64,000 bases of DNA from Pseudovirgaria hyperparasitica (Eukaryota): NCBI GenBank assembly GCA_010093815.1, contig ML996579.1; one strand, written 5' to 3'. Below, piece after piece: positions 22,601-61,443 of this stretch. Position 1 is the first letter of the stretch; every line of letters begins with the position of its first letter. The notes under the pieces were generated by a model, which saw only the letters and a program-made list of their open reading frames with translations, ran no database searches and was not told the DNA's origin. The position numbers were made by a program, and so were the translations under genes.

Positions 22601-25600
22601 TGCTAGTTTCTTCGAAAGTACGATGTTACTTATTTCTGTTTTGGCTGTCGCCCGTCAAGACGCTTATTACGTATGAGGGGCCTCACATAAATACAATGCC
22701 GATCTTCATCGTCTAATGATGCTGGTAAATAGTACACGCAGCGAACAGTGAGCAGCTGTATTATCATAGCTTAATGCATGACAGGTCTTGAGCGGTGAAC
22801 GGTCACGTCGAATACTATATGGTATGAGCACAAGTGACTTAACCCCCTTTTCTTGGACCTGAAATTGCCGAGTAGAAACTACCATATGTAGTCACCAACT
22901 CACTCGTCTCGTGCGAGAGAAGCATATATCTACACATCTCCCACGAGTTCGACTCTGGCAAGTATAAATGTGTTTTAAGCTCATTCACTTAATACTTCCT
23001 TATACATACATGGTGCCCCCCACCAAACATACCTCAATGCGCGAATTCTCCTTCCAGGTAGACCCACCAGATCGAAAATGCGTACATGTCCTTATTCCTT
23101 TCGCTGTCTGGTCCAGAAAAACTTCTCCCAGGCGCTGCAGACGGAATCGTTCAAGCTTCGTGTTCGTGGTGCCTGTCCATCTTCCCTAAAGCAAGGAGAA
23201 AAGCACCGTGTAGTGGCAGGGCTGAGGAGCCTTGCGTTCACACTAAGGTATTTCCACTGAGCACGCTCACCTCCTCCTTACAATCCGTATAGTAGACAGA
23301 AGTTCATTATATAGTCGCTCTTGCATTGTATCGGCATATGGTTGGTTCATATGCTTAGTTATCCTTTGACGTACGAATGTATTGCATCGCCGAATAGTGC
23401 TAATAAGCACAGAACAACAACAACCACAAATACCCCTTACTAGCAAAACAGTTCACGATAACACCATCTTGTCTCAAACATCAGAAAACAACGTATAAGA
23501 ACTGTGCCTAGTCAAGAAAAAAGCAAGACAACGCGGTATCTGTGACTCGCGACTGCATCATCATGGCCAGCGAACTCCTGAACTACCAACAACCCATTGA
23601 CCTCTCAGACCAGTAATATACTTCCAATTGCCTAATAACATGCCGTCCCTTAGATGGTTCGCAGAATAGTATAATAGCATATTATAGCACGCAAAAAAAA
23701 GAAAAAAAAAAGACAATGAAGAGAGACCATACATGCGAAAGTCTCAAACACAGCTAGCCCTCTTCACAGAAACCTCTTGACAGCAACCCGGCAACCCCTC
23801 CACAAAACCCCTGAATACGATTCACCCACCATACCAAAGAGCGCCAGGTAATACCTATATATATATTTATATATAAGCCCCCAGACCCAAACTCCTTCCA
23901 AATCCCAAATTAGCAAAAAGCTTGACTACCAAGGTCTAGGAATATCTGTGATGGATGTGATGCCGGTTAGTCGGTCTAATATGGGGCCGTCTGGACTGGG
24001 GTTGCAGTGCTGATGATGTGTGGCGTTAGGATGGGGTGATGCTGATCGTCACTGCTCTCTCTATCATCATCACGTCTTACCCCTCCCTCGCGCGCCGCAC
24101 ACTAACTAGCTAGTATTGACTTATCTACAGTGCCCAAGTACACGAGGGTCTGTCTTCGGGTTTTCAGACGATCCAAGTTATAACAGCCGTGAAAGCGGAT
24201 ACCAATGTATAGATACGTAAGAATACAACGTTTAGCTTTCTTTCCCAAAAGCCCAAGAAAGCTTTACCATATAAACATTTAAAACAAAACCGAGTAGGGT
24301 TTGGTTAATGATTACTTTAGCATTTCAGAGTCTTAGAGTCTAGGTACAGGAGAATCATACGATGTATTCATATAGATTAAAGTTTTTCAGGCGAAAATTC
24401 ACTATCATCGAATGTGTCTTCTCTCTCTCTTTCTCCCCTGATACAATAACCCTAATGCACACCCAACCCAATCCCATCATGATTGATTTGGATGGGATGG
24501 GATGAAATGTACATAGAGGACTTGCCCTGCCTTGATGGTCCGGTGGTAACTTTATTGAACAAAACATCAAACGACAAAGCAGGTTTGTTCAAAGGTGGTG
24601 GTGCTACTCCCAGTCAGCCTTAACAGACGTGGTACCGGATGGCTGGTAGGCAGGTAGGTACGCAGGTACGCAGAACGAACGGGAAGACATTAAAGGGAGA
24701 CCACCAGACAGGCCTTGGTACAAAAGAACAGAACGAGACAGAACAGGCAGTACAGCACGGTATATAGGTAGAGTGGAGCGAATGTGAAAATACCCCTGAA
24801 GTCTGCTCTAAGGCCGACCGTCAGATGTACTCTACTCCACTGTCAAACATGACCCGAAGGGGTGGGCTGTGTTGCAGATCAGGCGGGGCTGCCGCCGAGA
24901 TTTGGGGTCTGGGACTGAACGATGTGGCCAGGTCCATAGAAGAGCAGTACAGCAGCAGGCTGGAGCTCCAGGACCGAATGTCCCGATCGGGTAACCAGAC
25001 CCGAAGATATTCTATTGTAGTTTGTAGATGACAGTCGTTTGTTGACTGAGTAGTTGCTATTCATCCGGATATGCAACAGTGGCTTTGGGGAAAATGATGA
25101 GCCGGCAACCCCCTCGGGGCCTGCCACCGAGTACTTTGTACGAAAGATGGAAGACGTCTGTTAGATGTCTTCCGGTGTGAACAAACATCAAAGAAGATGA
25201 GAAGGGTACACATGAGGTTGAAGTAAGCTTAGCTGTCATGTTATCGTACCTTGGTCGTGTGAACTGGAATTGAAGCTCCTGCGACCCTTAAATGAATCTA
25301 GATGGTTCCACATATACAACGGACGGTTGAACCGTGGTAGTCAGCCACAGCCACCTCGACACCGTTGCTGCACATAACCATAACCATTCAACAAGTAAAC
25401 GATATTATCAGGTTCCTCAGTGAATGGCAGCCGTCCCGAGTACCATGTACGCTGAACCAGTACCTTGTTGTGGCAAGTGAAGAGAGGTTGGTAATGGCTC
25501 GGGTGGTGCTGCTATCGGGATCGAGTGTCGGTCCGTTCTTGACGTGCCTCGTGTCAGACACATGTCTTAACACCTCAGACGGACGAGACTTGTGAGTTGA

Positions 25601-27641
25601 TGCAAGTCACTCAAACGTCGAAGGTCTATCGTCGAAGGTTATCGTCAAAAGTCTTCCCTTTGAGGACACGTGTCGCGACCAAGGGGAAGCCTCATAGCCC
25701 CAGGAAGCCTCCAACATCTTTGGTGTCTAAGATTGTAATGTACATCGCTGATCGATCTGCGATATGATCCGATGCGTCGCAACGAGCAAAAGTCTCGTGG
25801 AATGGCTGAGTCCAATATCTAGCACTTCTTTCACCTCCGAAGGTTTCGTTGCGCAGCGATTGCGTGGCCTCCGCCGAAAGCCGAACAAAGCTCGAGGTTG
25901 CTGCTGTGGTCGCGAGGATGTGTGAGATACACTGACGCAAGGAAAACATTATTTCCAGCCCAATATTGACCGACATCTACACCTCTACAGTCTCAACCAC
26001 AATGGAGTCGTCTTTTGTGCATCATGAGTGCTGTTTGGTTGCTGAAAGAGGTGTGACGATTTCGCCCCGTCATAGGGACCCAAATAATCTCATACAGTAG
26101 TATACGGAAAACCCCGCACTACTCTTCCATGGCGAGTCGAAGCTCTAGTAAGACCGTTCTTGAGGTAATCCCTCTCCACAAAAGAGTGTGCTGGTTTGAC
26201 GTGGCGGCCAAAGGAGTTGGTCGGCCTCGTGGTCTTGACTTTGTGGACATGTCGACAGCTGAGTGTGTTCCTTCGGTTGTAGCGATAGTGTACCAGGATT
26301 CGGCATCCCATTAACTTTGCTGACATAGCCACTGTACTGGCCATATAGAGCATGCATCGACGAGAGCACATCCACACCATGTACAGGTGATCATATCTCC
26401 CATGATTGGTGAATCAGGAAGATGGCGGATGAGGACTTGGTGTCGGGGTCGGGATACGAGGGTAGGAAGACGACAGGGTGATAAACCGCCCCAACAGCGA
26501 ACAGTACAGTATATTGAAGTGATAGGGAGGTCTAGGAGGGACTGGATCGGAGTTAGGAGTGAGAAGTGGATTGATGGCTGACGGCTTAGAGTGTTGTGGC
26601 TCAGGTGGCTCGATGCATCTTTTCCAAGAGAGGTCGATCGGGCTGTCGGCATTGACGCTAGTGGCTCTGGATTGTGAAACGTCATCGTCCAGCAGTTAAG
26701 AGGTATGTCGCTGCAAGCTGGAGGGAGTCCAGATCTAATGCTCGCCAAACTGTAGACCAGGTCTTAGGAGACGCCGAGGGTACGTCGAGTGTTAAGAGGC
26801 GTCGCGATGCTGATTCGAAGGACTCGAACGAGCTCAGTGAGTGCCTCTCACAACTGCTCTCGCAGCAGCAGTCCCATGCCAAGCTGCAGTAGAAAAGAGT
26901 ATGGATGGTGACTGAAGAGTGTGCGCGAAAGAATAAGGAATATGAGCCCGGGACGAAACGCGTTGAGAGAGGCGTGCAGACAGCAGGCTAATGAGGAGAG
27001 AGGGAGAGAGAAGAAAGGAGATACAGGAGTAAGGCGTCGCATGCATGCTTAATGCGTACGTAGAGTTTTTGATAGAAAAAGAAACAGGAGAGCCAAGATA
27101 TCAATGAGATAGAAAGAGGAAGAGAGAGAGAGAGGGCGCATGCGCGCGTTGTACAGCAAACTTTGAAAGAGCGTTGTGAACTGACGTGACGTGACAGGGC
27201 GGCGGCGACAAGAACGAGGGGGGGCAGCAACAGCAGCAGCCTGGGGCAACGCTCAGAACTTCATGCTGCAGCCAAGACCGGCTCAAAGTCGGGCCCTGGG
27301 CACACGGCACACCAACAGCCAATCAATAGCGAGTGCTGGAGCCCGCAGGTCACATGATCAACAAGCGATGCACCGGTCCGTCCCACGCACATAGCGTTGT
27401 TTAGACCTCACCTAAACACTCCGCCACACTTGAAACTGCTGAAACCTCTTATCAACCAACCTACCCTGTTCATAATAATAAAACAGCCAACTATGATCAG
27501 CTGCTTATCGTGTGGAGACTGGGGATTGAGGAGCCGATGCAAGTGACCTGCTCCTGTGCCCCCCTCTCCCCGCTGCCCTACCTTATTACTACTACGACAA
27601 TTACCTGTGCGCGCAGATCTTCTGTGCAAGGGGTTCGTTCT

Positions 27642-27909: not shown

Positions 27910-29286
27910 TCAATAGTAACGCCACATCTGTCGTTGCAGTATGGCTTGCTGGCAGTCTCCAATATCTGTGTTTGTTTGTCGCGCTACCAGGGGGTAATTG
28001 TTCGGATTCTCGTATGCCGTCACCGTTTGTGGGACGGTGCACTGGATTGAATCCAATGTGTTGTGATACTGTTGTGTAGCAGGCTGTTGTGGCGAGGTCC
28101 ACGTATTGCTTGCGTAGATGTTGTCGTCCCTCCTCTCGTCAGACCTGGCGCGTTTCGTCTCTTGCCGTGCTCGGCGGGGCTTCTCGTCGTCGCCATCGTC
28201 ACGCTCTCTCTTGCGTCTAGACATTGTTAGTCTTATGTCGTCATATGCCATACAAGACTCTTTGACTCACGAAGTTGATCCTCTGGTCTCCTTTCGGAGC
28301 CTCAGCTTGACACCCTGGTCTGCAAATGTGCGAGACATGGCCGTCGATTCTTCAAGGCCGGAGTAATCTTTGCTCGCAACGACTGTCCCGAGTAAGCTAA
28401 TATGTCTTGCATCTTCTGTGTACAGGTAGCATACCCTTGAATGTATTGGAAACGACGTTCTTGACGAAGATGGTGGTGCCTTCGTGTCTGCCTAAGAATT
28501 AGCTACTAGTTTCTCGATGTCTAGTGTGATGACTTACGGCTTTGTCTCAAAAACGCTGAATAGCAGACGAAATCTTCCTTGTTTCCTGACAGACATGTCT
28601 GCAAAAACGAAGAATGCACTCTCTATCAAAGGTGGACAAGTCAGCTCAGACACACAGAGCTTTGCACACGTCCAAAGGCCACTGACCGTTGTCTCTGTTG
28701 TCTTTGAGGCGATTTATAGATGAAACGATGGTCCCCAGTAAGACAGTCACCCCTTTGCTATCCGTGACTGGGTTGAGTGAATGCTCTTCGACCAAGGTTG
28801 CCAGGCAATAAAGGTAGGGGCTATGAGTGTAGATCCTGAACAGTGTTAGATTAAAGTATGTGACAGAGTTGACATAACATACTGTTGAGGATCCTTGTCC
28901 GTCGGAAGAACCATTTGTACTACTGGCGGGGGATCGATCGGTTTGCGCACTGTGGAGGGAGCAGTTAGCCGGAGTACGTAAAGGGGGAACATAGGTGACC
29001 TACTCTTTTCTTTACCTAGCTGGGTTACCAGAGCTTCCCTGGGCTGTTGCACGACGGTGAGTTGGATGGAACTGTTATATTTTACCAGGTCAGTGGGAGA
29101 ACTCGGCTGGTGATGTTGTGTCTGTGAAGAATCTTGTGGTGTATACCTCTCCAGTTGGTCCATAGGCGGATTTTGAATCGTTATCGTGTCTGCCGAGTAG
29201 AGATAAGAGGGCGCGGATGGGTCACTAGGATGCGGAGGATGGATGATGGTATAAGGGGGATACTGATGCTGTGGCGGAGGATCCAT
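27910..29286 (-). CDS. Velvet-domain transcription factor, VosA-like, 6 exons
   Basis: Spliced reading: [148 protein letters not shown]. Five GT-AG introns of about 50 nt keep the frame. Confidence 0.9.
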
Positions 29287-30434
29287 ATTGAGAGGTAGAA
29301 AATAGTGGGTAGTTATGTGATTAGAGAGATGAGACGTGTTGCTGGCTGGCGATGCCTGTTCCTTGCGATCAAGGTGTAGGAGTGTCAATATTATCAAAAG
29401 GCTACGAAGAGTTACACGGTCGAAAGTCGCAAGAGCGGGTACAGCGTCCTTTATGCTGTAATCTGACAGGAAGATCCAGAGCCACCAAACTCGCTTTCCA
29501 GTCGTCCAGTCCAGTTGTCCGGGCGTCCAGTTACGTGTCTAGCAGTCCGCGTCCTTGCTGAAATGCGATACTATCGCGTAAAATCGTGACGCATTCGCTA
29601 AGTCCCAAGTTATCAACGCCGATGCGGTGCGGTACGGTGCGGTGCGGAAGCGGTTCCACCTGCCCCTCCACTGTTTGGCACCAGCAGCGCTGCTGCCCGT
29701 GATGTGTTTGTTGGAAGAGACTGTAGAAGTCTACCACGGAGATGTACTTCCAAGCTTGCCCCTCCTCTTTGAACGAAGGTGGTTCAAAACTGCTGTGTCA
29801 TCCACAGCAGGTACATGAGTAGGAGGCTCAGGGTTCACGCCCTGGGCGTTGGCATTCTACACAAGCGGACTGTCGCGGAAGTGCGCCACCCAAATGGAGT
29901 GAATCGAGCTCGATACTCTTCTCGTAATGTGTTTGGAGCTGGTAGTGAATCTGAATAGAATGTTTGAACGGGAATGATATTACTGCGATCGTCGCAAGGT
30001 TTGAAAATGGTCAAAGGCCGTTAGACGAGTGAAACAGCGTGTTAGATGCTGAATCAGCGCTCGAGAGCTCAACGAGTCGCTGTCAGGCTCGAGCTGATTG
30101 CTATGCAGAAGTTGACACTGCACAGATGGAGCAGAGCAGAGCAGGCGCGAGAGGTGAAAATGGCAACGGCAAGAAGCTCAGAGGTCTAAAGAGCAGCCTC
30201 GAGCTTTGAGAAGTAATAGCAATGTACCCCACTAGTGAATAGGTTTTGGAGCTGACTCGACTTGGCAGCGATCCTCGCAGTAGCCAGACGTGTGGCTTGA
30301 GCACAAAGGAGAAGCCTGGATTGGATGAGTGAAGGTTCGGAAGCCGGCTAACGGTGAGGAACACGGGGCACTGTAGGAGAAGGCAGATGGTGTCGTCAGG
30401 CACTCAGGTCGAGAATGATGTAGGGCGGGAGTCT

Positions 30435-36500: not shown

Positions 36501-37099
36501 TTTTTGTTGGGTCCTTTCAATCCGTACACTGGGCGGATTCTGATATTTTGTTCCTTTTGCACCAAATACCCACCCATGACCACGCCCTGACTGGCTCTAA
36601 ATCTATAGTTAGGCGGGTGGCGGAATGAGAATGCGCAAAGAAGAAAAAAAAGGTAGTTGGGAATCGTAATGGGTCGTAGCATTATCGTACGCCTTAGGTA
36701 AGCGCTGTCATAGCTGCCCTTGGCAGTATAGGGTAAGAGCTGGACTTTGTGAACAGTCTTGTAGATGTTTGGGCTGAGCGCGCTAATGAAAACACCGGTC
36801 TGAAGAGAGAGAGTGAAAGAAATCTCATACACTGCTTGTTAAGCGACTTGCCGTTCGTACTTGATACTTGGTACTTATTCAACGACAAGTCGCATATCAG
36901 AACTCTGACGTCGCACGTCCGCACCAACCTGCACCAATTTTGCTTTTCCATCGGCGCCGGGTTTGCTTGTATGCTCCCGGATCCTTCGTCTAGTGAGTAA
37001 TTAGTGGCTTGTGGACTGCTATATGCATGTTTGTATATGGAGGAGATATGGAGGAGAAATTGGCAAATTGGGTTAGTTGTTTGATCTGGGGGGTTTGGG

Positions 37100-37103
<4 letters not shown>

Positions 37104-37196
<93 letters not shown>

Positions 37197-37206
37197 NNNN
37201 NNNNNN

Positions 37207-37299
<93 letters not shown>
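37104..37299. repeat. Long (GT)n microsatellite spanning a 10-N assembly gap
   Basis: Pure GT repeat on both sides of Ns at 37197-37206; true length unknown. Confidence 0.97.
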
Positions 37300-37301
<2 letters not shown>

Positions 37302-37437
37302 TTCCCGTAGATTTTTTTGTTGAAAGAGAGAGATAGATGGAGAGGTAGTAATTTACGTGTGTGGTTAACGTGTGTATTAGTGATAGATTAGTGCGCAGCA
37401 GAACGATACATACGTATGCATGAAAGGTTTGAATACG

Positions 37438-37536
37438 TGACGTCACGCGTGACTGGCCGGGCTCACGGCTTGCTCTACTCGTGTACACACGCGTGGGAAG
37501 AAAATACTTAGTCCACTCCTGATCAGGCTATATAAA
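37438..37536 (+). promoter_or_regulatory. Promoter-like block: CRE (TGACGTCA), two MCB boxes (ACGCGT), TATATAAA
   Basis: TGACGTCA 37438-37445 overlaps the palindrome GTCACGCGTGAC 37442-37453; second ACGCGT 37489-37494; TATATAAA at 37529. Confidence 0.45.
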
Positions 37537-38152
37537 CATTACTCACGAGTCCTACGTCTTGCCCTAGAGTCTCAAAAACAGAGACATGTAAATACACTTT
37601 CCCTCCTAAGGCCTAATCATCTACCATCATCAGCATAAACACGAGGTGTGAAAGAAAACACTGCTGTCCATGTCACGCACTCCCTGCTTATCTTATCCTA
37701 GCTTACCTTCCCAGCCGAGATTTGCACGACATGCATACCCGTCATTCTATCTGCACATATATATATATAGCCATATCTACCCACCCCCTCTCCCTCCTTG
37801 CCCGTCCCACACTCCTCTCATCCATCAGCACATCACGAAGCGAGGGTCTCATCATGTGTGTGCGTCCGATACCCACGACATTGAATCGCACATCACTGCG
37901 TAGATATCGTATCACATGGATGTATCACCGCCATCTACCAAACATGTGGTGCTGGGCTGCAAGTGGTTCTGGATCGTAGTATGGCGGACAGAAAGATCAA
38001 GATATCCACCATGTGGTCGTGCTGGGGAGGAAATGGTGATGGGGATCGTCGGCGGAGCGTGGTGGTGGCGTAGGTATGTGTGATGGGGTTGATGGGGAAT
38101 GGTGTTGTGGGATCATGGTGGAGGGTGACGGTGTAAATGATGATGGGTTATA

Positions 38153-38375
38153 GAGTGTTTGTGCTGCTGAGGGTTTGAGGAGTATTTAGGAAAGACATGG
38201 CTTACCCGGCATCTACGCTCATCGACTAGGTGTATATGTTCAACCGCACCTACCCATCTCCACATCTCCGTTCTCTTTTCTGTAACCTATAGACCATCAT
38301 AGAAACACATCCACCACATTCCAAAAGACACCATGCGCTCTCACCACCGCTTCAGAATACAGCCGTATCCATGCC
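38153..38375 (+). repeat. Copy A of a diverged ~220-bp direct repeat (promoter module plus start of a short ORF)
   Basis: Shares gagtgtttgtgct-ctgagggtt, atggcttaccc-gcatctac-ct-atcga, caaccgc, ttccaaaaga--ccatgcgct-tcaccaccgcttc and ccgta-ccatgcc with 43518-43735. Confidence 0.9.
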
Positions 38376-38437
38376 CTTATTGGAATATTGAGGTTGTAGG
38401 AGACTCACTTGTTGTATTAGAACCCCCTTTTGACTAG
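38333..38437 (+). CDS. Putative 34-aa micro-protein MRSHHRFRIQPYPCPYWNIEVVGDSLVVLEPPFD
   Basis: First ATG after the TATA-like element, in ACC-ATG context; N-terminal 14 aa paralogous to the ORF at 43693. Confidence 0.35.
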   Translation: MRSHHRFRIQPYPCPYWNIEVVGDSLVVLEPPFD

Positions 38438-39310
38438 CTCACTAGAAACCGACAGTGGGAGTGACAAACTGTATATGCGCGAAGTGTCCACGAAGCAGCC
38501 ACTCCGTCGATTCGTGCACAGAGTTCTGCTGCTCGGTGCTGAGATGTAGCTCTGGGTGTTCACGCGACCAGGTGCCCACAGCTGCGATACTTCTGACATT
38601 CGCCAAACTCTAGGACGCTTCACCCACGCAATCGCAGCATCTACGTTAATGAGCGACAAAGAGACCGGCCTTGATATATTATCGCTCAAAGATGACTACT
38701 GCATGACAATCTTGATCGAGCACGCCACAGCTAGAAAAGACCGGGCGGTGGAGATTTTACCGACTCCATTCATGCCCCAATTGATGAAGAGGGATTATTG
38801 TGAGAGGTTGGAGGGGAATTTTTATGAGTGGGTGGCTTGAGAGGGCGAGATTGGTTAGGGGGCCACTGGGACGAGCTGGATATGCAAAAGAGCTTAGGCG
38901 TAGTGAGACTGAGGTGGGCAGTGCACGTCGTGTATGTATGACTTGTGCCCGCATATAGCAATCCGATTCTTTTCGACAGGTGTGTTGTATCTGTGCCAAT
39001 AGTATCAAGATCTGGTGGAAAATGGACAGGGCCTCTTGAAATCTTCGCTGGATCATCCTTTCCGCCCTTAATAAAACATCAGCAATGTTTGTATTTATCG
39101 ACTAGATATCGTATGTCGGCCAAAGCCCTATCGAGGTCAGCGTGTCTTACTCGGAGAGACAGGAGGAGAAAAAAAGGAACGTACAGTTTCCTCGGACTAG
39201 GATTGTCCGGATAGTGAGCGGATGAGAGAAGATTGAACCGTCTGTAACAATCTTAGGGCGTTGAGGTCATCCTTGACTGGCTTTCAGACCAATCAGTGCT
39301 TTAGGGGCTC

Positions 39311-40468
39311 TCACATGGAGTACAAAATGTTCCTATCCTCGCAGTCCTCTTTAGGGTCTGATTTGGGGATCGATGTATGGTATTTCTCCATATAATCTGG
39401 TCCGATAGAGAATCTAGCGAGTCTCCACTTTGCTAGATCATCTATAATAACGTTAGTCCTCCCTCTTCTCCATCGAAACACTCCCTTGCGCCCAGAAAAC
39501 GAATATATAGTGTAGGTTCTACTTTCATTCGTTGTGTCCCCAGAAAGATCCAGCACCAAACAGTATCAGCCTGTTCGTCTTTTTATCTATTCGCACATTG
39601 CGAATTTGTAAGTCCACAGGGACCAGCACTGGTCAAATCTTCTTTCCCGAGGCTTCCAGAGGCCGAAGGAGTCGTAGAAATACTACTCGGAGTAGCCTCA
39701 CTGATAAGTCGTCCAGTTCTGAGGAGCGTCCTTGGGCAGCAGCTTCGTGATCGAGAATGTGCCGCATGCCTCTGGTGAAGAATATCTCCCAGGAGTCAGC
39801 CCAAGTTTTGTCTTGCGGGAAAGCGCCCATGTGTCGTCACATGAGAAATTCAAATTTTCCATGCGGATTCTGATGCATTGACTGTTTCTCGTATAGGTCA
39901 GCTGTCTACATATGCAATCGCGCCACCATAGAACAAAACGCTTCGACGTCAAGCTGCGCTTCAATGAGTTCGTGGAAGTCACTAATATAAGAAAAAGTGA
40001 TCTTTCAAAGAAGAACAAAGCCCCCAAGCGAGTAATCTCACTATATATATACTCAAGCATTATAGCATATAGTAATGCCATCGATTCGTACTCGCCACGA
40101 AGCATACTCGTGCCAAGCTCACCTTGAGCAATCTGTCAAGACATAATACTCATGATTAGAATCCAGAAAGAAAGCGGTGCAGGGGGAGAGGGGGGTGGGG
40201 CGCTCGTTTTGGCAAAGAAGTCTTCAGCTTCTGGGTGTCGTCCGGTGACCGATAAGTGAATTGGGCACGACCAGCCGCATTCTCCCAATTGTAGAGAAGT
40301 GACTCGTTCGTCTGAACTGCATACGTCTGCTGAGATTGTTAGCAATTGGAGACTATGGTAACCCTGCAGCGTACGGGACATAATCGCCTCATCGACGGAG
40401 ATGTTGTTTGAAAGATCACGAGGCAGGTCAGGCTTTGTTGACCACAGCTTGGGTTTACAGCCTAACAA
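39311..40468 (-). pseudogene. Fructosamine-3-kinase / protein-ribulosamine kinase family pseudogene
   Basis: Collinear fragments MLRGEYESM, NPHGKFEF, WADSWEIFF, LRLLRPLEASGKKI*PVLVPVDL (decayed HGDLW), GSFWGHNE*, PKSDPKEDCEDRNILYS, broken by in-frame stops and frameshifts. Confidence 0.85.
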
Positions 40469-40525
40469 TTTTCATTCATCAGTGCTACCATTATTTAGTA
40501 AATGCTGTAGTGCAGGCGCTTTGTA

Positions 40526-41704
40526 CTATGAATTGGACTTACTTGCCTCCCTGGCGATCCGCTGTAGGTCAGATAGAAAGACCCATCGCCCGGAGGACTT
40601 CCATCCTTGCTCTTTCCAGCTATCTGCAGTCTCTGGATAGTAGCTTAGCGTGCCGTGGATCGACACGTCGTGCGCAAAAATCACCATAACCCTGTCGTCA
40701 GCATCGAAAGCTTCAATGCTCTTTATTGTTCTCTCCGCATCCTCGAGATGTTCTGGGAAACAGGGGTCTAGGCCTAGATATGGCAGTATTTTCGAGTTGC
40801 GAGGGTGGAATTTGACGAGTTCCTCAGCGGGACAAGGGGAGGGGTTCAGACCAGGGGCATCGACGAAGTTCGGTAGAGGGAGAGCTTCGGACGGACGAAA
40901 TTCGCCTCCCAAATGAACACTGTCTGCAGCCATGAGGATGAAAGTTGGTGGGTTGGCTGAGGTTCTTGCGAGCGCATTCAAATGCCCAAGAGCGTGCTGA
41001 ACATTTTTGTAAGCATAATCTCCCACATACCAGCTGGAGAGCGCGACATCTTACCCCAGGTGCATCAAGAAGATAGAAACTGCCGTCTCCGAAATAGTCA
41101 TGCGCCCTCAATCCACCAATGTCGATCTTGAAGCTATCTGCCTCGATACCCGTGATTTTTCGACCCGCAACGTCAGTCTCCCGGAAGTGTGCGTCCGGTA
41201 CCTTGGGCCACCCAGGCATAAAACGGTCTTTGATGCCAGGGCCAACCACGAGATCGGTGTTTGGCGGAAAGCTTGCAAGATTCCCGGTATGGTCCCAATG
41301 AATGTGACTAATGAGACCACATCAGCAACAGCAAGATTGATCCCAAATAACAAAGCTTGCCTCCAGATCGCAGCGTCCAATTTGCCCAGATCAAGTCCGC
41401 CATCGCTTAATATGTCCACGAGCTCTTTCTCCACCTGGATAATCGTCCCTGATTCCTTGAGTCGAGCTACAGTTGAAGGTATAAGCTCTTCCCAGTTTTT
41501 TTTTATCCCAAGATCGAACAAGACATGGCGATCAGTATGCGTGATGAGGAACGCGTAAGAGCATAGGTCAAAAGTGTTGAGTCCAGGAAACTTCGGACGG
41601 AATAGATCGGCACAGTCGACCTTGTAAGCCCATGATGTAGTGTCAACAATTGACACAGAGACAGTCGATTCTGAAAAGGGGATCGTAATCTCGCGTGGTG
41701 CCAT
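40526..41704 (-). CDS. Metallo-beta-lactamase-fold hydrolase (AHL-lactonase-like), 3 exons
   Basis: VLFDLGIKK, spliced WSHIHWDHTGN (HxHxDH), DYFGDGSFYLLDAPG|HALGH, ADSVH, IFAHD; first intron 41360-41308 has a GC donor. Confidence 0.9.
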
Positions 41705-41916
41705 TCTTCCTGAACTAGGGTACCGTCGAAAATGATGGTAGGTATATACCCTTTCAAGAGGGCTTCGCTGTTTCCGAGTTCTATTGAATACAAGATGACG
41801 TGATAACAGCCTCAAGGAGTTCGCCTTTTCATGTAGGCTCATGCTTTGCCTAGGACGTGATGTGGTGGATGCACAGGTACCAGCGCTATGTGAAAGAGGA
41901 TTGACTAGATGTTTCG

Positions 41917-41980
41917 TACCCGTGCCACGCACGACATGGTTGAAACCATTTCAACCATGTATTAGTGCGTGGCACGAGTA
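41917..41980. mobile_element. 64-bp TA-flanked inverted repeat, MITE-like or internally deleted Tc1/mariner remnant
   Basis: TA-CCCGTGCCACGCACG-ACATGGTTGAAA-cca-TTTCAACCATGT-ATTA-GTGCGTGGCACGAG-TA. Confidence 0.6.
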
Positions 41981-42415
41981 ATACTCCAAACTTCTTAGTT
42001 AGTGGACGGAAGCTATTCCAGTTTCGACATAACGAAATCTTGCCCCGCTCGGGAGCGGGGGAACGGGTGTTTCGTCCGGTGCCATATAAATTGAGCTAGG
42101 TAACCTCCCGTCCTGAAATCGTAGACAAGGTGCTCGCGAGTCAGCGCCACCAGCCAGCTGTGATGCAACCGGTAAGTGTGCAGTCATGCAACGACCCTGG
42201 AAACTCTCGTCTACACTGATCAGTCCACGGGTTGATGATTTGGCAATGATCGACTTCTCCAAACCGTCTAATGATAAGCCATAAGCTGCCATCAGTTCAT
42301 AGCGCTCCACGGCCTTTTGACTTGGAGCTGGAAAGCGTACAAGAATTCTTACCCGCACGTAAGGCTTCCGCAACCTTCAGCGAACATCGCTCAATTTGAG
42401 AGTTCTCCGGCCACG

Positions 42416-43300
42416 ATGCAGACCCCTAGATCTACCGTTGGTCGTGTCGACAAGGCGCCCAAGGAAGTTAATGTGATTGTAAGCGGTGGTGGGGTAAGTG
42501 GTCTGTTACGTTGAAGCAAAACACTCTGAAGCAACACAGCCCTGGGGCCCCGGCACTCCATGGCCTCCAATACCCATCAATTCGTCCTGGCTCATAGCTG
42601 ATGCCCTGCCTCGAGTCATCTTTCGCAACGGCGAACGACCCAATATACGGATAGTTCTATATCCAGAGCCTGTCCCGTCTTCTTGGCACGCTATTCGTCA
42701 GGCGCTACCTCAGTTCTGGAGCGGCGACAAGCACTTCTTCCACCTGCACCACGATCCCGACACACCTTCGCATTTCCCTGTGACAGCTGTTTTGCATATG
42801 GGCATGCTTGATAAGCCCAATGAGGCTTTCCGGCTTGAACAGAATGCGTTCAAGCTGGGCTATGAACTTCCAGACGTAGATGGCAAGCGTCCTGATGAAG
42901 ACGACTTGACCGGTGGCGGCACTTGGACTGACATACCAGATCAGCTGTCTACAGAGCTAGACATAGGCTCCATCATCACAAAAGTGAAGTCAACATATAA
43001 AGTACATCGGCTCCCCCTTGTCCTGCATGTGCTGTCTTGCTTATACATGTATCTCCTGAATAGGACGCCGCCATTCGCATCTCCTACGATCCTGCTCGTT
43101 TTCTTTGCGCATATGAGTACTACACTTCGCTCGCAGCGGTATACAAGCGCAGCGAGAAGCGAAGAGTACTTTTCATGCACACTCCGATAGAGCATGAGAG
43201 CGAAAACATTCAGTACGGCGTTCAGATTGTTACGAAAGTCATTGAATCCATGGTGGAGGAATTGGAAAGCTCAGAGACAGCATCAGAACATCAAGCCTAG
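42416..43300 (+). CDS. Pyroglutamyl-peptidase I (peptidase C15), 3 exons
   Basis: VIVSGGG|PWG..INSSWLIADALP, VLHMG, FRLEQNA (catalytic Glu), SYDPARFLCAYEYYTSL (Cys), RRVLFMHTP (His); introns at about 42494-42539 and 43002-43043. Confidence 0.85.
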
Positions 43301-43517
43301 GTGTCTAGAATGCAAGTCCTTTTCAACTAATCCGGTCATTCGGTGCTACCTATCCGTGTAGAACCATTTCCTCGTCGCATATACCAGCTTAAGTCCGCAC
43401 GCTTAAGAAGTGAAAGTGAAAGCAGACCCTTAGTTCATGCATACCCATCGACCAACGAAGATGATGAGGTTCGTGGGGATAGCTGCAACCGGCGTGAATG
43501 ACGATCGATGAGTTGTT

Positions 43518-43735
43518 GAGTGTTTGTGCTACTGAGGGTTCCAGGAGTGTTGGTATATGGTTTTGGGAAGGTATGGCTTACCCTGCATCTACACTTATCG
43601 ATTTATATCTATATATCCAACCGCGCCTCCTCCTCTCCTTCCCTCCTCCGCAAACCATCACAAAAGCACACCTAGCATATTCCAAAAGAGCCATGCGCTG
43701 TCACCACCGCTTCCATATGCATCCGTACCCATGCC
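43518..43735 (+). repeat. Copy B of the ~220-bp direct repeat
   Basis: Collinear similarity to 38153-38375. Confidence 0.9.
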
Positions 43736-43833
43736 ATGTCCCGTTCGTCGTGTGTGATATTCCCGGTACTGGGCATCGCGTCATGTGTGCCCACCAAGTG
43801 CATCATGGGCTTGGCGATGTTGTATATCAGTAG
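43693..43833 (+). CDS. Putative 46-aa His/Cys-rich micro-protein MRCHHRFHMHPYPCHVPFVVCDIPGTGHRVMCAHQVHHGLGDVVYQ
   Basis: First ATG after TATATAT (43610), in GCC-ATG context; 9 His and 4 Cys; paralogous start to the 38333 ORF. Confidence 0.4.
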   Translation: MRCHHRFHMHPYPCHVPFVVCDIPGTGHRVMCAHQVHHGLGDVVYQ

Positions 43834-44410
43834 TATTGCGCGCTGATGGCGATCATCATCGCGATTGTCATGGTACGTAGTATGTGCATTGTGTCTGGCT
43901 TAGGCTCCATCGCATACAGGATCTGGCATGGAACTTCCGGCCAATTCCTTGCCGTGTGTGCCTGATCGTTTTGCGCTCCCGGGGCTTGGTGTTGAGAAAA
44001 CCGATGTGCACAGTTCTGTAGGTTGTTGGATGATGAGGTGTGGTGGGCTTTATATATGTTGGATGAGATCCATTCTTAGTATTAATCGTATTACCCGGCA
44101 TCCCATTCACAACACCCACTTACCCGCACCATTTCCCTTCACACAGTGCCAACCCGGCAGAAAGAATCCGCCAAGCAGATGCTGCGCAGTTTGGTATATA
44201 ACCTGAGCCTCTCGTCTGCCATTGCGGTTTCAAATCAGAAAACTTTCTCCGCGACAATTTAGTATAGAGAGACTCCCGAAGATATCTACACCGAATTAAC
44301 AGAGACGACTTGGTTCGTCCATGCTTCCGGTGCATTCGTCTTAGGGTTGTCATGTTGTTGGGGTGTGCCGAGTGTTAGCTGTTGGTGATGCTCTTTGTTA
44401 TCGGTTCATG

Positions 44411-44412
<2 letters not shown>

Positions 44413-44448
<36 letters not shown>
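44413..44448. repeat. (GAT)12 microsatellite
   Basis: Perfect GAT repeat. Confidence 0.95.
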
Positions 44449-44449
<1 letters not shown>

Positions 44450-46690
44450 AGGCGTGTTAAAATTCGCGCGCGTTGCGTCTGGAATGGTGACAAGTAAGGG
44501 TTAGATACGAGGAGACAGGTACGGGACGACATGGCACGGTGTTAGGATATTTGCAGAGCGGCACCCGACGGCAACATCTGCAGACTAGTACATTGTTTTT
44601 TTGCGTTTAGTTGCGAAATTCGTATCTGCTATGGATTGTATCAAGCTTTTCTTCGCACGAATGAGAACTTACTTTATGCGTTCTGCGTTCAGGGGGTTGT
44701 GAATGTGTTTCGGGGGTATGTAGGACCCGACTTATGTTGAATAGCGTTAGTGAGAGGCGAGCATCATTCACATTCATACATGATAGTAAACAAACCACTG
44801 AACAGCCACACATCTCCACCCAACTTCATACTATGTATCGCTTCCACGACCATCCCAACAACCCTCCACCCGATCCTAGCACTGTGAAAGAAACACCCTA
44901 CCCGGCACATACATCCACAACAGGAATAGCTATATAAGCACAGCTGCTCCCCAGCGTCTCCATCCCCCTGCACACTTTCTGACATTGAAATCGTATTGCA
45001 TGAAAGAATCATGGTACTCATCTCTCTCTGACGCTATATAATGCCACCTTCTATGGCTGCTCACTCTTGGACTCCAATGCTGGATAGATATGAAGACGAT
45101 GATGATGATCGTTGTGAGGTGACCTTGGTGAAGAAAATCGCTGTTGTGTACTGACGATGCTGATCTGTGTGCTGGACAGATTGTCCGCGACGGCATGTGT
45201 CCGCGGCATCATTCATTTGTGTTTTGGTAAGTGTGGCGGCGTGACATACCCTGTATGCTATTGTAGGGAATATAATAGCAGGTCACAAGGAATATACAAG
45301 GAGAGAAGGAGTGATTAGTAATGTAGGAATGATGTGAAAGCAGTTAAAAAGATAGATATGCATTGTGGACAGTCTCAATACACGTACAGGACAGTCCCAA
45401 AAGTTGTAAGGAGAGCGCTAGGGTATGATATATAAGAGGTAAATTCTATAAGAATAAACTTCTTCTATCCCTCTGCTCCCTTCCGACTACACAATTCTAC
45501 CATATCTTCGTGTAGAGTATAGACTTACCGAGGAGAGGGAATGTATCATGCTCTCTTCACCCTACTCGAATATTCGATGATGCCTCGTTGTTTGCCTCTG
45601 TAATAGTATGACTGCTCAGCATCGTGGAACGGTGACGCTCATCACCAAATTTAACCAGAAATAAGGACCATTGCTGACCAGATACGAGACAGGTACTCAC
45701 GCACTGCCCTAATCTGAAGCTGTTTTCAGGATAAGCTACTACAGCAAGAGTGTGTCTCTCAACCTTTTCGTCAGGCTAATAACCCATTAGCAAGTCCTTC
45801 ACGCAAGACCGAGGTAGAGGTGCTAAAGCATCCGGGACTTCAACAACGTAGCTGTGATATGGGGTCCTTTGAGCCGTATCCAGGCTGCCGGGTACGCCGA
45901 AATGGCGAGTTTGACTCGAGACACATTACGAAGCAGAAGACCAACGTACCCGACAAACCTACAGCCTCAGCTATTAGACACTCCAGTACTTATACAATGC
46001 CCCGTGACTCTAAATTTCTTCTTAGAGTCTACAAGGAAAGTAGAATCTATCTGCCGAGGGTCACTGCTCGTAGTATAACAACTCCAAGTACATGTTGTCG
46101 CTCCTGCTGGATAGATGTAATCAAATGATCCCGAGGAACAATGTTGGCACTATCCGCCTAAGCATTGTTCTTCATCTACGTGGGACGTTGATGATAATCG
46201 TCGCCAGGGAGTGGAGATTACGCTTAGTAGCGTCTATACAGAGGAACATCATTAAGGATGTTACAGACGACACATTGGTTGTGGCAGAAGTAGGAGTATA
46301 AGTTCCATTTCGTGAGATGGACGGCAGGTACCCACGAGGCAGTACAAAGCTCTGAAAGAAGGGTTAAGCTGATCGTATATACACAAAGGAGTGCCGGGTA
46401 GTCTGCCTGCAGTCTAAATACTACAGCACCGGGCAAGCTGGCTCTATGAAAGAGATGTCTGTTTTTACCTCTTCGAACATGACTTACCAGAGAATCATGT
46501 AGGTAAGCAAAGCCTATATATCGAAACTTTCCTAGGGAAAGACCGCGAACAAAATACTATGGCTATGTCTGCCATACTAGAACTAAATCTATGACAACAT
46601 AGCTCTAGGCTCTGGACATGTTGCTGCAAGTGCTGTTGCTTATTAGCTAAAAAAGTATCGCGAGCATAGACTGACATGACACCACCATTC

Positions 46691-47962
46691 TCACTGGCCT
46701 CCTCCAACTCCGAACATCTCCGTTCTCACTCTTTCACTGTCAACTCCATACTCCTTCAACTTCGCCTCTGCAGCACACATGAACTCCGTCGGTCCACAGA
46801 CAAAGTACCGCGTTCTCTCATCCCCTAAATGCAACAGCTCCCGCTCTCTCAAAATATCCATGTCCATCCTTCCCTGACAGTCATACTCCTCCCCCTGAGT
46901 CTCCCCCTCATCCGGACAAGTCGTAAAAAATACAACCCTCAAGCCCACATACTCCCTTTCTACATCCCTCAACCGCACACGAAACACCCTATCCACGTCC
47001 CTCCTCGCCGTATGCACCAGCGTAATCCTCCTCTTTCCCTTCTCCGCCTCCAGCATCGCCATCAACGGCGTAATACCCACCCCAGCACCCAGCAACACCA
47101 ACGGCACATTCCCATCCCCATCCCCATCCACACTCCCCTCCTTTGCCGCATCAAACCCAAAATCCCCACCCGGGCAAGAAACCTCAACCTCCCCCCCAAC
47201 CCCCATCCCATGCAAAACCCCACTCACGTACCCGCCCCTAAACCCACCCCTCCCATCCTCCCTCTTCACACTAACCCTCAAATACCCCCTTCCAGGCCCA
47301 TCACTCAAACTATACTGCCGCGCCTGCAACATACCCTCATCCCCACTCCCAGTAGCGCCCGGCACACGCACCCGCAAACTAACATACATCCCCGGCACAA
47401 ACCCCGGCACGTCCGCCCCATCCCCACGCACAAGATAAAACGACGTCACACACTCCGTCTCCATCTCCTTTCGCACAATCCGACACGTCTGCCAGCCTAC
47501 CCAATTGCTGTGCTCCACACGCGCGTAGCCAGCGCGCTCAAGCGCAATCATACTGTTCGCAAGCTCCCAATACGCAGCCGTCCACGCAGCACGTACTTCG
47601 GCACTCCACACACCCCCGGGCAGATCGCCGAGCACGCGCTGCATCGCGGCGATCAAGCCCTCGCCGACAAGCGTGTACATGGGCGGCGTGATGCCGAGGC
47701 TAACGTGCTTCGCGCATACCAGCTCTAGCATCTTCTTCAAACTGGCCTGGTCGTCGATATGCGTTGCGTATGCATGCAGAGCGGAGGCGAGGGCGCGGGC
47801 TTGGTGGGATGTGGACTGGTGGGTTGCGTTGAAGATGTTTGAGAGGTCTGGGTGGGCGGATAGGAGTGATTCGTAGAAGGAGGAGGTGATTGCTGTGCCG
47901 TGGAGGGCGAGGGCGGGGATTGTGGCTTTGATGATTGCGCGCTGGGGGGTTGTGAGGGACAT
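46691..47962 (-). CDS. YHB1: Flavohemoglobin (nitric oxide dioxygenase), intronless
   Basis: Globin domain (IIKATIPAL..FYESLL..HPDL.NIFN..QARALA..KHVSLGI..Y), FAD domain (PGMYVSL, RQYSLSD, SVKRE, GYVS) and NAD domain (GAGVGITP, YFVCGP, EMFG). Confidence 0.96.
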   Translation of the reverse strand: MSLTTPQRAIIKATIPALALHGTAITSSFYESLLSAHPDLSNIFNATHQSTSHQARALASALHAYATHIDDQASLKKMLELVCAKHVSLGITPPMYTLVGEGLIAAMQRVLGDLPGGVWSAEVRAAWTAAYWELANSMIALERAGYARVEHSNWVGWQTCRIVRKEMETECVTSFYLVRGDGADVPGFVPGMYVSLRVRVPGATGSGDEGMLQARQYSLSDGPGRGYLRVSVKREDGRGGFRGGYVSGVLHGMGVGGEVEVSCPGGDFGFDAAKEGSVDGDGDGNVPLVLLGAGVGITPLMAMLEAEKGKRRITLVHTARRDVDRVFRVRLRDVEREYVGLRVVFFTTCPDEGETQGEEYDCQGRMDMDILRERELLHLGDERTRYFVCGPTEFMCAAEAKLKEYGVDSERVRTEMFGVGGGQ

Positions 47963-47970
47963 TTTCTTGT

Positions 47971-47971
47971 G

Positions 47972-48006
<35 letters not shown>
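47971..48006. repeat. (GTGC)n tetranucleotide repeat immediately upstream of the flavohemoglobin ATG
   Basis: About 9 tandem GTGC units. Confidence 0.9.
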
Positions 48007-48007
<1 letters not shown>

Positions 48008-49240
48008 AGCGAGGGAAGGGGTCTTTGGGTTAGAGGGCTGGAAGGATGTAAGAGTGCTGCTGTATGTAGTGCGAGATATATCGGATGTAGATTTGAAAGA
48101 TATCGTAGTGGTTTTGAGGAAAGAAACATGTCCTTTATGCTCTGCCTATCCTCGTCCCTCGAGACACGGGACCCCCTGAGCCGTCTCTCGAAAGGGCTGA
48201 CAGACTTTTTCTTTTATTATTTTCTTCAAGGACTGGCTGGTGTTGTGTTCGTACTGCTGGCTCCACTGCCAGACCCTGAGTTGCATCAACCCTGGTCCCG
48301 ACGCATCGTCCTGCTCAGGCTTCTCCGGGGAGAAAAGGATCCGAGAAATGATTAATTATGCATGTGAGAGCCAAAGTTAGACTGGGCAGGTGAGATTCGA
48401 TGAGTAAGAAGATCTCGCCAGGGACATGGTGTCACAAGAACTATCATGCTGACTGATGTGGTACATCCAACTTGGGCCGTTTGCCCATGCGACGCAAGCA
48501 TTCTCTGTCAGACCCAGGGACGTGAGCGCACATGCTCTACGTTCGACACAGCATCTCCGTGGCACGTAGATATACATGGTAGGACAAACATACACCTTCG
48601 GCACAGAAGAAACAGCTCAGCATATAGATCGTCTCTGTTTGACTCTACTATTATGCTCATTACTCTTAGCTTCAATCTCCCAACAACAACATACCAGCGC
48701 AAAGCCAAAGTATGTCCCGCCATGATGCTAGTTATCTGCTATATGCAAATAATGCCCCTTTCACTTGATTGCTTTTCCTTCTAAAAGCCACCATATGAGT
48801 AAAGTATACCCATATATCATACTCTGAACTAATGCTCTGATAGGCTTTTCTTGCCTCTTAGCACTCCTGCTTGGTATCATCAAACTAATACTGTCCTGTC
48901 ACACAGGGAACAAAGGAAAACTTGGGCAAATGGGAAAATGTGGATACGGGGGCGGCGTGGAATGGGTGGGGTAAGTCTATGTTACATACGACAAGTCGTA
49001 GGTAGTGAAGAAAGGAAAGTGTGAGTATATGACCTCGTAGCCATGTTGATTGAGAAGATGCCTTCGAGTCGGCCGTTCAGTGACGGAGGATCCGACGGCT
49101 AGGTGTCAAAGAAGAGCTTTTTCCACGATGAACTTTTATGGTCCCACAATGCGCCTTCCAGAGCCGAGCGCCGATTCGCCAGAAAGTAACACGACAACGT
49201 CCACCGATGGAGAGGTGAGGAATGCTGGTGGACAAGACAA

Positions 49241-60306: not shown

Positions 60307-60506
60307 CTACTGTCGCTTCACGAAAACATTTTTTCTATTACTGCAAAGTCGTCAACTGACAATTTCTCTAGTTCGCATCCGTGACGCGTCGACTTCCTCG
60401 CGCTGATGTGATCTGACAGATCTCTTCGCATCTATTAGGTGCGAAGAGTATGAGCTTTGTAAATGTAAGTCTCTGATACCCTGCCATGATAATATTTACC
60501 CTCGCG

Positions 60507-60591
60507 ATGATGACGTGTGAGCATTGCTCGCTGGAAATTACCGACCGAGTAGACTTCGGTCTCTCTGAGGCACAACAAAGGCTGTATCTGA
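60507..60591 (+). ncRNA. snR77: Box C/D snoRNA snR77 homolog
   Basis: ATGATGA 60507; guide GCTGGAAATTACCG (matches SSU CGGTAATTCCAGC with one bulge) before D' CCGA; CTGA 60588. Confidence 0.85.
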
Positions 60592-60712
60592 GCTTCAACT
60601 ATGTCACCTACTGTTCTGCATAATTGGTTGACGGTGTACTGACAAGATGAATTAGGTCGCAACAAGGCTCGCTCTTATACGGTATGGCCATCTTCTGCTC
60701 CTCGAATACTAC

Positions 60713-60795
60713 GTGATGAATGGCACTGGGCTCCGAACTCTAGAATGAAAAGGATATGCCATACTGCGACAGGCCTAGAAAACCTCGTCCACTGA
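60713..60795 (+). ncRNA. snR76: Box C/D snoRNA snR76 homolog
   Basis: GTGATGA 60713; guide GCACTGGGC (complement of LSU GCCCAGTGC) before D' CCGA; CTGA 60792. Confidence 0.85.
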
Positions 60796-60935
60796 TATCT
60801 GCCTTGTGTCTGCGACATGTCGACGGTGTTTATTATTCATGGAACTGACGTCGCGTCAGGCATCGCGTTGAACACACCGCGCATGAAACCTCTTTACAGT
60901 GTAAGTCATGTGCACCACCTCCACTCCTCCTCTAC

Positions 60936-61017
60936 GTGATGAACATCTAGATGACGAGTCTTATCTGGATTTTCCAATGCAGACACCACTTTTTTAATAA
61001 CCATTCATGCCAACTGA
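60936..61017 (+). ncRNA. snR75: Box C/D snoRNA snR75 homolog
   Basis: GTGATGA 60936; TAGATGACGAG and CCATTCATGC, complementary to adjacent LSU segments CTCGTCATCTA and GCATGAATGG; CTGA 61014. Confidence 0.88.
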
Positions 61018-61129
61018 AATGAAACTGTTCTCCTCGGCCTTTATCGCTCTTCAAGCACTGACGCTGACATGTCGAAAGAAGTCTAGACCATTGGTGTAAA
61101 GTATCTCTCCTTCCGATTGCGCGCCTTCG

Positions 61130-61204
61130 ATGATGATTCGACTTAAAAATGACAAGCATATGTCCAAGCCACCTCGGTGGTGTTGACGAGACTGTCTCAT
61201 CTGA
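61130..61204 (+). ncRNA. snR74: Box C/D snoRNA snR74 homolog
   Basis: ATGATGA 61130; guide GACAAGCATATG (complement of SSU 5' region CATATGCTTGTC); CTGA 61201. Confidence 0.88.
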
Positions 61205-61359
61205 CTGTCGTGCGGCATGATCGGCGAGCTTGCCAGCAGGTCTGAACCTCTGACTGACTGCGCATCAGATTTGTGGTTGAACATTACGAGCTGGATGTAT
61301 TCTACCAAGGTAAGCCATCTCCGCATGACGTCCCCTTGTTCAACTTTTACACCTTCCCA

Positions 61360-61443
61360 ATGATGATTTACTCTATCTCACGACGGTCAACTGAGCTACA
61401 AGTTAGCTTTGACGAAAGTGCCTGTGACAGGGCTTTGATCTGA
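61360..61443 (+). ncRNA. snR73: Box C/D snoRNA snR73 homolog
   Basis: ATGATGA 61360; guide TCTCACGACGGTC (complement of LSU GACCGTCGTGAGA) before D' CTGA; CCTGTGACAGGGC; CTGA 61440. Confidence 0.88.

Follow-up and report, generated by a model that had tools for sequence, protein, structure and literature searches.

In budding yeast, the Myb-type protein Reb1 binds a short site with the consensus TTACCCGG, and in plants the promoters of small nuclear RNA (snRNA) genes are characterised by a fixed spacing between an upstream sequence element (USE) and TATA (USE-TATA promoters). A word of 9 nt, TACCCGGCA, which shares TACCCGG with the yeast site and at several copies stands approximately 30 nt upstream of TATA, recurs in a stretch of 64,000 nt from Pseudovirgaria hyperparasitica (GenBank assembly GCA_010093815.1, contig ML996579.1), hereafter called the window. 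Positions are counted from the first nucleotide of the window, with the strand given as (+) or (-). The initial annotation of the window had read word and TATA together as a promoter module which drives a co-regulated family of micro-peptide or small-RNA genes, with Reb1 and the plant promoters as analogies. The non-random, TATA-coupled word stands, whereas the Reb1 site, the small-RNA class and the micro-peptide family are not supported. The analysis supports a word that is non-random, restricted to non-coding DNA and coupled to TATA at approximately 30 nt, at three independent sites and one paralogue. Its core, the 8-mer ACCCGGCA, which occurs mostly as YTACCCGGCA, is tentatively regarded as a putative binding site of a sequence-specific protein, upstream of TATA in intergenic DNA.

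Over-representation and location of the word

Six exact copies of TACCCGGCA are present in the window, at 21270-21278 (-), 38203, 44092 and 44899 (+), and 45886-45894 and 46392-46400 (-), which confirms the number and the places given in the initial annotation. The mean in 100 dinucleotide shuffles was 0.25 copies, and six copies were reached in 0 of the 100. When up to one mismatch was allowed, 20 sites were found in the window versus 8.9 expected, including the previously annotated single-mismatch sites at 37736 and 43579, and 15 of the 20 are in two stretches, 21.27-23.97 kb (6 sites) and 37.7-46.4 kb (9 sites). Low-complexity words excluded, TACCCGGCA is the top 9-mer of the window by Poisson probability (P = 4e-7 under an order-1 and 1.3e-6 under an order-3 model). 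An equally extreme 9-mer was found in 1 of 30 Markov shuffles under each order and in 1 of 40 in a separate run. In raw counts, Markov shuffles commonly contain complex 9-mers with 6-8 copies, so the excess of TACCCGGCA resides in the ratio of observed to expected copies and not in the bare count.

The enriched core ACCCGGCA has 10 copies versus approximately 1-1.4 expected, ranks first or second among the 8-mers and was matched in none of 30 shuffles, and the shorter CCCGGCA occurs 15 times versus 4.2 expected. Nine of the ten ACCCGGCA sites are inside the two gene-poor stretches, and DNA without genes supported by Pfam or by complementary DNA (cDNA) likewise holds 9/10 of them, together with all six exact TACCCGGCA sites. 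The sites stay out of the promoters of every recognisable gene of the window. Like sites also cluster, with three within 70 nt (44091-44159) and an inverted pair of 11-mers at 45886-45955.

After TACCCGGCA, the complex 9-mer with the greatest excess in the window is ACGGAGATG/CATCTCCGT, with seven copies versus approximately 0.6 expected, at 29736, 38263, 40395, 46715, 48552, 53631 and 57024.

Distance to TATA and composition downstream of the word

Measured from the start of the word to the start of TATA, the distance is 30 nt at 21278 (TATAAG, starting at 21248 and read leftwards), 30 nt at 38203-38211 (TATATG), 32 nt at 44899 and 19 nt at 46400; 45894 has no TATA, and the first TATA beyond 44092 is only at +103. 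At the single-mismatch sites the distance is 31 nt for 43579 and 22-30 nt for 37736-37744 (+; TACCCGTCA), the latter being the span of a (TA)n run. All the distances reported earlier were reproduced. Three of the six exact sites have TATA at +30 to +32, for which the background chance is 0.015 per site. In a test that allowed any 3-nt spacing window between 10 and 100 nt, 18 of 4000 random sets of six non-coding positions equalled the three shared spacings (P = 0.0045), and the pattern TACCCGGCA-N15-35-TATA had three matches in the window versus 0 in 100 shuffles.

Among the modules, the one at 44884-44938 (+) looks most like a textbook promoter, with GTGAAAGAAA followed after 5 nt by TACCCGGCA (44899) and with TATATAAG at +32. 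The module at 46376-46422 (-) consists of AGTATTTAG, 13 nt, TACCCGGCA (46400-46392) and TATATA at +19. Two sites in the first stretch contain the core ACCCGGCA, namely CACCCGGCA at 22377-22385 (-), with TATATA 43 nt downstream, and AACCCGGCA at 23785-23793 (+), with a TA-rich run 71-87 nt downstream. The cluster at 44092-44159 (+) is made up of TTACCCGGCA (44091), TTACCCGCACC (44120) and AACCCGGCA (44151), the first of which has no TATA within 100 nt. The inverted pair consists of CGTACCCGGCA (45886-45896, -) and CGTACCCGACA (45945-45955, +), 48 nt apart, with no TATA nearby.

The 150 nt downstream are C-rich and G-poor at 10 of the 13 sites examined (skew of at least 0.23, versus a 75th percentile of 0.15 in the background), and in this form the C/A-rich leader of the initial annotation is retained. 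Most modules had also been said to be followed by open reading frames (ORFs) of under 50 codons only. The ORFs are indeed short, but one of 111 codons (43498-43833) spans a module.

A duplicated segment and the possible common descent of the modules

Comparison of the window with itself by BLAST gave a sole pair of direct repeats, of approximately 235 bp, at 38142-38375 (+) and 43507-43735 (+), with 71 % identity when gaps were included and 81-84 % in ungapped blocks. In the first copy, the word and TATA are accompanied by a C/A-rich tract and by the beginning (15 codons) of a small ORF. The second, which begins 207 nt past the stop codon of a plus-strand gene, contains TACCCTGCA at 43579 and TATATAT at 43610. 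Since the sites at 38203 and 43579 are both in this pair, the two modules represent one old event. The copies are 5.36 kb apart and flank a 5.1-kb block with two expressed genes, a layout that would fit an old partial tandem duplication.

All the modules might, by extension, be worn relics of repeated local duplications of one segment of approximately 100-250 bp, similar to a promoter or to the 5' end of a gene, in which case the word would recur by descent and would need no binding protein. Besides the clear duplicates at 38142-38375 and 43507-43735, gene debris is present in the region in the form of a kinase pseudogene (see below), and there are hints of an older kinship of the modules in shared words and in a profile match. 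AGTATTTAG has exactly two copies in the window (38181 and 46422), each 22 nt upstream of the word, and GTGAAAGAAA has three (0.16 expected), of which two precede motif-like sites by 15 and 88 nt, while an nhmmer profile of the duplicated pair matched 44886-45011 (E = 0.0038) and, weakly, 37724-37786 (E = 3.9). The nhmmer match, however, contains the word and TATA and is hence not independent, and neutral decay that erased the flanks (in-register identity of 17-40 %) should not have spared the 9-mer in six copies. In-register flank identity was at chance level (8-45 %) for the other module pairs, versus 40-47 % for the duplicated pair. With flanks this dissimilar and a single BLAST pair, simple descent from a repeat is insufficient to explain the word.

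Nor were transposon protein domains (reverse transcriptase, integrase or DDE) found among 249 stop-to-stop ORFs, scanned at a length of at least 45 amino acids in 19.7-24.5, 37.55-38.9 and 43.3-46.7 kb and of at least 65 amino acids in 17.4-19.7, 24.5-37.5 and 38.9-43.4 kb. The scan matched the kinase pseudogene, a velvet domain, an ORF with helix-turn-helix (HTH) domains only (18640-19653) and, weakly, Lactamase_B (E = 5.9e-4, below the Pfam cut-off), with PF15822 and PF10587 as sub-threshold matches. Membership of the word in a long terminal repeat (LTR) or transposon family, which the initial annotation had itself named as a contrary outcome, is thus not indicated, there being neither extended multi-copy similarity nor transposon domains. 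Descent of all modules by hidden paralogy is considered unlikely.

Sequences downstream of the modules

The small-RNA genes proposed in the initial annotation could not be recovered behind the modules, where no Rfam family, stable fold or T-run terminator was found. Rfam matches with E up to 1 were absent from 37400-46800, and 19600-26000 yielded just two, both at chance level; the folding of eight putative transcript starts was no better than that of shuffles (z from -2.03 to +1.88), and runs of at least five T were absent within 300 nt of any of eight sites.

The proposed micro-peptide genes similarly had no sign of purifying selection, no database entry and no Pfam match. Six of the first 15 codons differ between the paralogous small ORFs of the duplicated pair (38334 and 43694), five of the six differences being non-synonymous, and the similarity is then lost. 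None of nine small ORFs was present in the protein collection, which does contain the neighbouring flavohemoglobin. When the frames behind nine modules were translated with stop codons read as X, one Pfam match was obtained in 27 frames, to a FunK1 kinase, and this shard was the only coding trace.

The match corresponds to a pseudogene of a FunK1-type fungal kinase at 38430-38780 (+), an internal shard with an in-frame TAG (PF17667, E = 1.4e-15 with the one TAG read through; profile positions 51-138 of 387). A HMMER search with the shard gave 177 relatives, the best of which has 809 amino acids and 46 % identity, with residues 317-420 matched, and the shard corresponds to residues ~300-420 of homologues of ~800 amino acids. 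With 150 of the 177 relatives as tblastn queries, 38430-38780 was the sole match in the window; word-based protein searches with the shard gave no matches. The module at 38203 was considered as the promoter of this pseudogene and rejected, as there is no N-terminal kinase part between module and shard. Being isolated and internal, the shard is not a product of this module.

Transcript contigs and splicing

Contigs of two public runs (X1 and X2; library type unrecorded) were aligned to 37400-48400. Ten joints are present in the contigs, of which one spans 593 nt and the others 46-85 nt; canonical GT/GC..AG ends with consistent strand are found at nine of the ten. From these intron-like joints the contigs were inferred to be derived from cDNA. 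Contig coverage is nil over 43639-46207 in X1 and over 43644-46616 in X2, which is no sign of silence.

A spliced gene for a protein of 357 amino acids with a metallo-beta-lactamase (MBL) fold is located at 40462-41704 (-), and its GC..AG intron at 41308-41360 (-) is agreed on by contigs of both runs. The contigs of this gene extend more than 2 kb past the stop codon, to 38131, through the module at 38203. Three introns of this tail are at 40327-40374, 39242-39314 and 39128-39184, and a fourth, at 37613-38205, is optional. The stretch (38131-40462, -) is a spliced 3' tail of unusual length or, alternatively, a non-coding RNA that overlaps. Contigs also define the flavohemoglobin gene and, at 42.4-43.3 kb, a spliced gene on the plus strand. 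A palindrome of ~64 nt (41917-41980; 81 % self-complementary) is located in the divergent promoter region that the latter shares with the MBL-fold gene.

The optional intron at 37613-38205 (-), of 593 nt and with GT..AG ends, belongs to a low-depth minus-strand RNA (joint 37611/38205, X1, depth 3, side 28) and contains the single-mismatch site at 37736. Its donor is the reverse complement of the word at 38203, the minus strand there reading tgccgg/GTAAGC, and was used in one contig; the spliced depth was 3, and that of the unspliced exon contig 17. Among the contigs that continue from neighbouring genes, one from the plus-strand gene reaches 43643, crossing both the word at 43579 and TATATAT, and one from the flavohemoglobin gene reaches 46296, crossing the word at 46400.

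Interpretation of the word as a possible promoter element

Over-representation, restriction to non-coding DNA, orientation, coupling to TATA and clustering of like sites were observed directly. The word statistics favour a real cis-element, and the position relative to TATA and to the G-poor tract favours an upstream promoter element. If ACCCGGCA is bound as proposed, the sites of the candidate factor would be concentrated in two gene-poor intergenic stretches. At a subset of them (21278, 38203/43579 and 44899, and loosely 37736 and 46400) the word, 20-32 bp upstream of TATA and a G-poor tract, would serve as the upstream element of a TATA-containing RNA polymerase II promoter, with transcription predicted to start ~30 nt past TATA. 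Absence from recognisable promoters, together with concentration in gene-poor DNA with pseudogene debris, suggests unannotated and probably non-coding or decayed units. The products would probably be condition-specific, and neither micro-peptide nor small-RNA genes.

Several observations weigh against this reading. The sample is one 64-kb window and the word was picked after looking, and roughly one shuffle in 30-40 contains a 9-mer as extreme. Two exact sites, 44092 and 45894, are without nearby TATA, the relation between orientation and skew is in part trivial, given the 4 C and 2 G of the word, and the paralogue at 43579 has lost a G of the core (TACCCTGCA), which indicates weak constraint there. 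Three of eight modules are inside RNAs of neighbouring genes (38203, which is antisense and spliced at the word, 43579 and 46400), and no contig of the two runs begins just past a module in 37400-48400, nor do these contigs give a positive sign of the proposed tiny units. Contigs cannot mark the starts or ends of RNAs, and read-through is thus compatible with promoter activity. Among the matches listed in full-text and term searches of the literature, no fungal element with TACCCGGCA was named; those to the word and its complement were coincidences with primers, and the one to CCCGGCA in Aspergillus was unrelated. In the main text of an Aspergillus paper on chromatin accessibility by ATAC-seq (PMC8419926), CCCGG, CCGGG, CCGGC, GCCGG, 'novel motif' and Reb1 are absent.

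The word could alternatively be the site of a Reb1-type (Myb) general regulatory factor, marking the boundaries of transcription units, where it would exclude nucleosomes or block read-through, and not driving tiny genes. TACCCGG, present in 6/6 exact sites, equals 7 of the 8 bases of TTACCCGG, and the full TTACCCGG is found at two of the six. The sites at 43579 and 46400 lie 279 and 291 nt, respectively, past the stop codons of two expressed genes, the plus-strand gene and the flavohemoglobin gene, and on the same strand as these. However, the analogy drawn in the initial annotation is not supported by the statistics. The Reb1 core TTACCCG (7 versus 3.2 expected) and TACCCG[ACT] (13 versus 12.9) were judged not enriched, the excess being in ACCCGGCA and in the 3' half, CCCGGCA. 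The base that precedes TACCCGG in the exact sites is T in two (38202 and 44091), C in three and G in one, and in four of the ten core sites the T needed by Reb1 is replaced by A, C or G. Contigs also run through the sites at 43579 and 46400, such a site follows only 2 of ~13 gene-sized ORFs or genes in the window, and among the matches listed in term searches of the literature, which were yeast-centred, none linked the Reb1 motif to filamentous fungi. A boundary factor of this type is regarded as unlikely.

Chance combined with local composition, by which an extreme word was picked by eye and the TATA coincidences came from TA-rich intergenic DNA, is also improbable. Complex 9-mers with as many copies are usual in shuffles, the unrelated ACGGAGATG has seven, and the family-wise P is only ~0.03. 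Separate lines nevertheless agree in opposing chance, namely the ratio of observed to expected copies, the location of all six exact sites in non-coding DNA, the distance to TATA (P = 0.0045) and the clustering of like sites; the second and the fourth were noted post hoc and weigh less than the other two.

The preferred reading, a bound promoter element, could be extended to a lineage-specific promoter class of a Eurotiomycete fungus, in which a dedicated factor would recognise YTACCCGGCA at a fixed distance from TATA (~30 bp) and activate transcripts, non-coding or with micro-ORFs, that are not annotated. The units would then be clustered beside the velvet and flavohemoglobin genes (developmental and stress genes) and silent in the condition sampled. 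This extension is held to be quite doubtful. That the word is instead a signal in RNA of the opposite strand, TGCCGG/GTA forming an exon end and 5' splice site, is very improbable: although the joint 37611/38205 uses the donor tgccgg/GTAAGC and the paralogue reads TGCAGG/GTAAGC, the other sites read GTAATA, GTAGGG, GTAGAT, GTAGTC and GTACGC, G is at intron position 5 in only three of the six exact sites, contigs pass 43579 and 46400 unspliced and in one case also 38205, and the splice depth is low (3 versus 17).

Were the enrichment and the TATA spacing to hold across the whole genome, the word would mark out a regulon of transcripts that are not annotated and give a handle on the factor. For now it is an ordinary candidate cis-element; the stronger claims, of a Reb1 site, a small-RNA promoter class and a micro-peptide family, are removed.

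Neighbouring genes and other features of the window

Among the proteins encoded in the window are the spliceosome factor SF3a60, a P-type ATPase, flavohemoglobin, a SAPS protein and proteins with a CID domain, a velvet domain and five RRM domains, respectively. The flavohemoglobin gene (423 amino acids) is at 46691-47962 (-), and its product is a singleton in protein clusters at 90 % identity. A metagenome scan with flavohemoglobin gave 203 pattern matches and 0 relatives, and one with a 20-mer from the duplicated module gave a single chance match, L001 (37 % GC), which is otherwise dissimilar. The velvet-domain gene at ~28270-29540 (-) has 7-8 kb without a Pfam-recognised ORF on each side (19.7-28.2 and 29.6-36.4 kb).

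The ORF at 18640-19653 (+), 1.6 kb from the first cluster of the word, encodes 338 amino acids with paired-type HTH domains (HTH_23, HTH_32) and without a transposase catalytic domain, and may represent either the relic of a transposase or a DNA-binding protein that has been domesticated. Four C/D-box small nucleolar RNA (snoRNA) genes (Afu_300, Afu_513, snR75 and snR73) are located in a row at 60500-61445 (+), ~200-400 nt apart, and probably form a single polycistronic or intron-hosted cluster; two of the four match families known from Aspergillus fumigatus, on which ground the fungus was termed Eurotiomycete-like.

A long (GT)n microsatellite at 37100-37300 is broken by an assembly gap of 10 N (37197-37206). 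A ZIP transporter at 36694-37527 (-) was rejected, as the Pfam match is weak (E = 5e-4, below the cut-off) and falls on the translated (GT)n tract; it was treated as an artefact of low complexity. A (GAT)n microsatellite is found at 44408-44450, and words rich in GAT/ATC are common in the non-coding stretches, CATCATCA being the commonest 8-mer.

Comparison with known systems

As in families of solo LTRs or dispersed repeats, two 235-bp copies with the word and TATA are present as direct repeats. Unlike in such families, the block between them consists of ordinary spliced host genes, gag, pol and transposase domains are absent, BLAST gave no further copies, and the other sites share only short words.

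The Reb1/Nsi1 sites of budding yeast have TACCCGG in common with the word, and some of the sites described here are at the 3' ends of genes, like the roadblock or boundary sites of yeast. They differ in that the excess here needs the additional GCA, T precedes TA in only 2/6 exact sites, and contigs read through two of the sites.

The USE-TATA promoters of plants are resembled in that several copies here have a spacing of ~30 nt between upstream word and TATA. The fixed distance which defines that class is found as 30, 30 and 32 nt in three of the six exact sites and as 31 nt in the paralogue. The modules here differ in being associated with no snRNA, snoRNA or other Rfam family, T-run terminator or stable fold, and no module of this kind accompanies the genuine snoRNA cluster at 60.5-61.4 kb.

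The proximal elements of fungal TATA-containing RNA polymerase II promoters differ from the word described here in that the latter avoids the promoters of all recognisable genes in the window. The architecture is nevertheless alike, with a short oriented word tens of bp upstream of TATA, followed by a G-poor tract that is rich in pyrimidines or in C and A, and with similar sites clustered.

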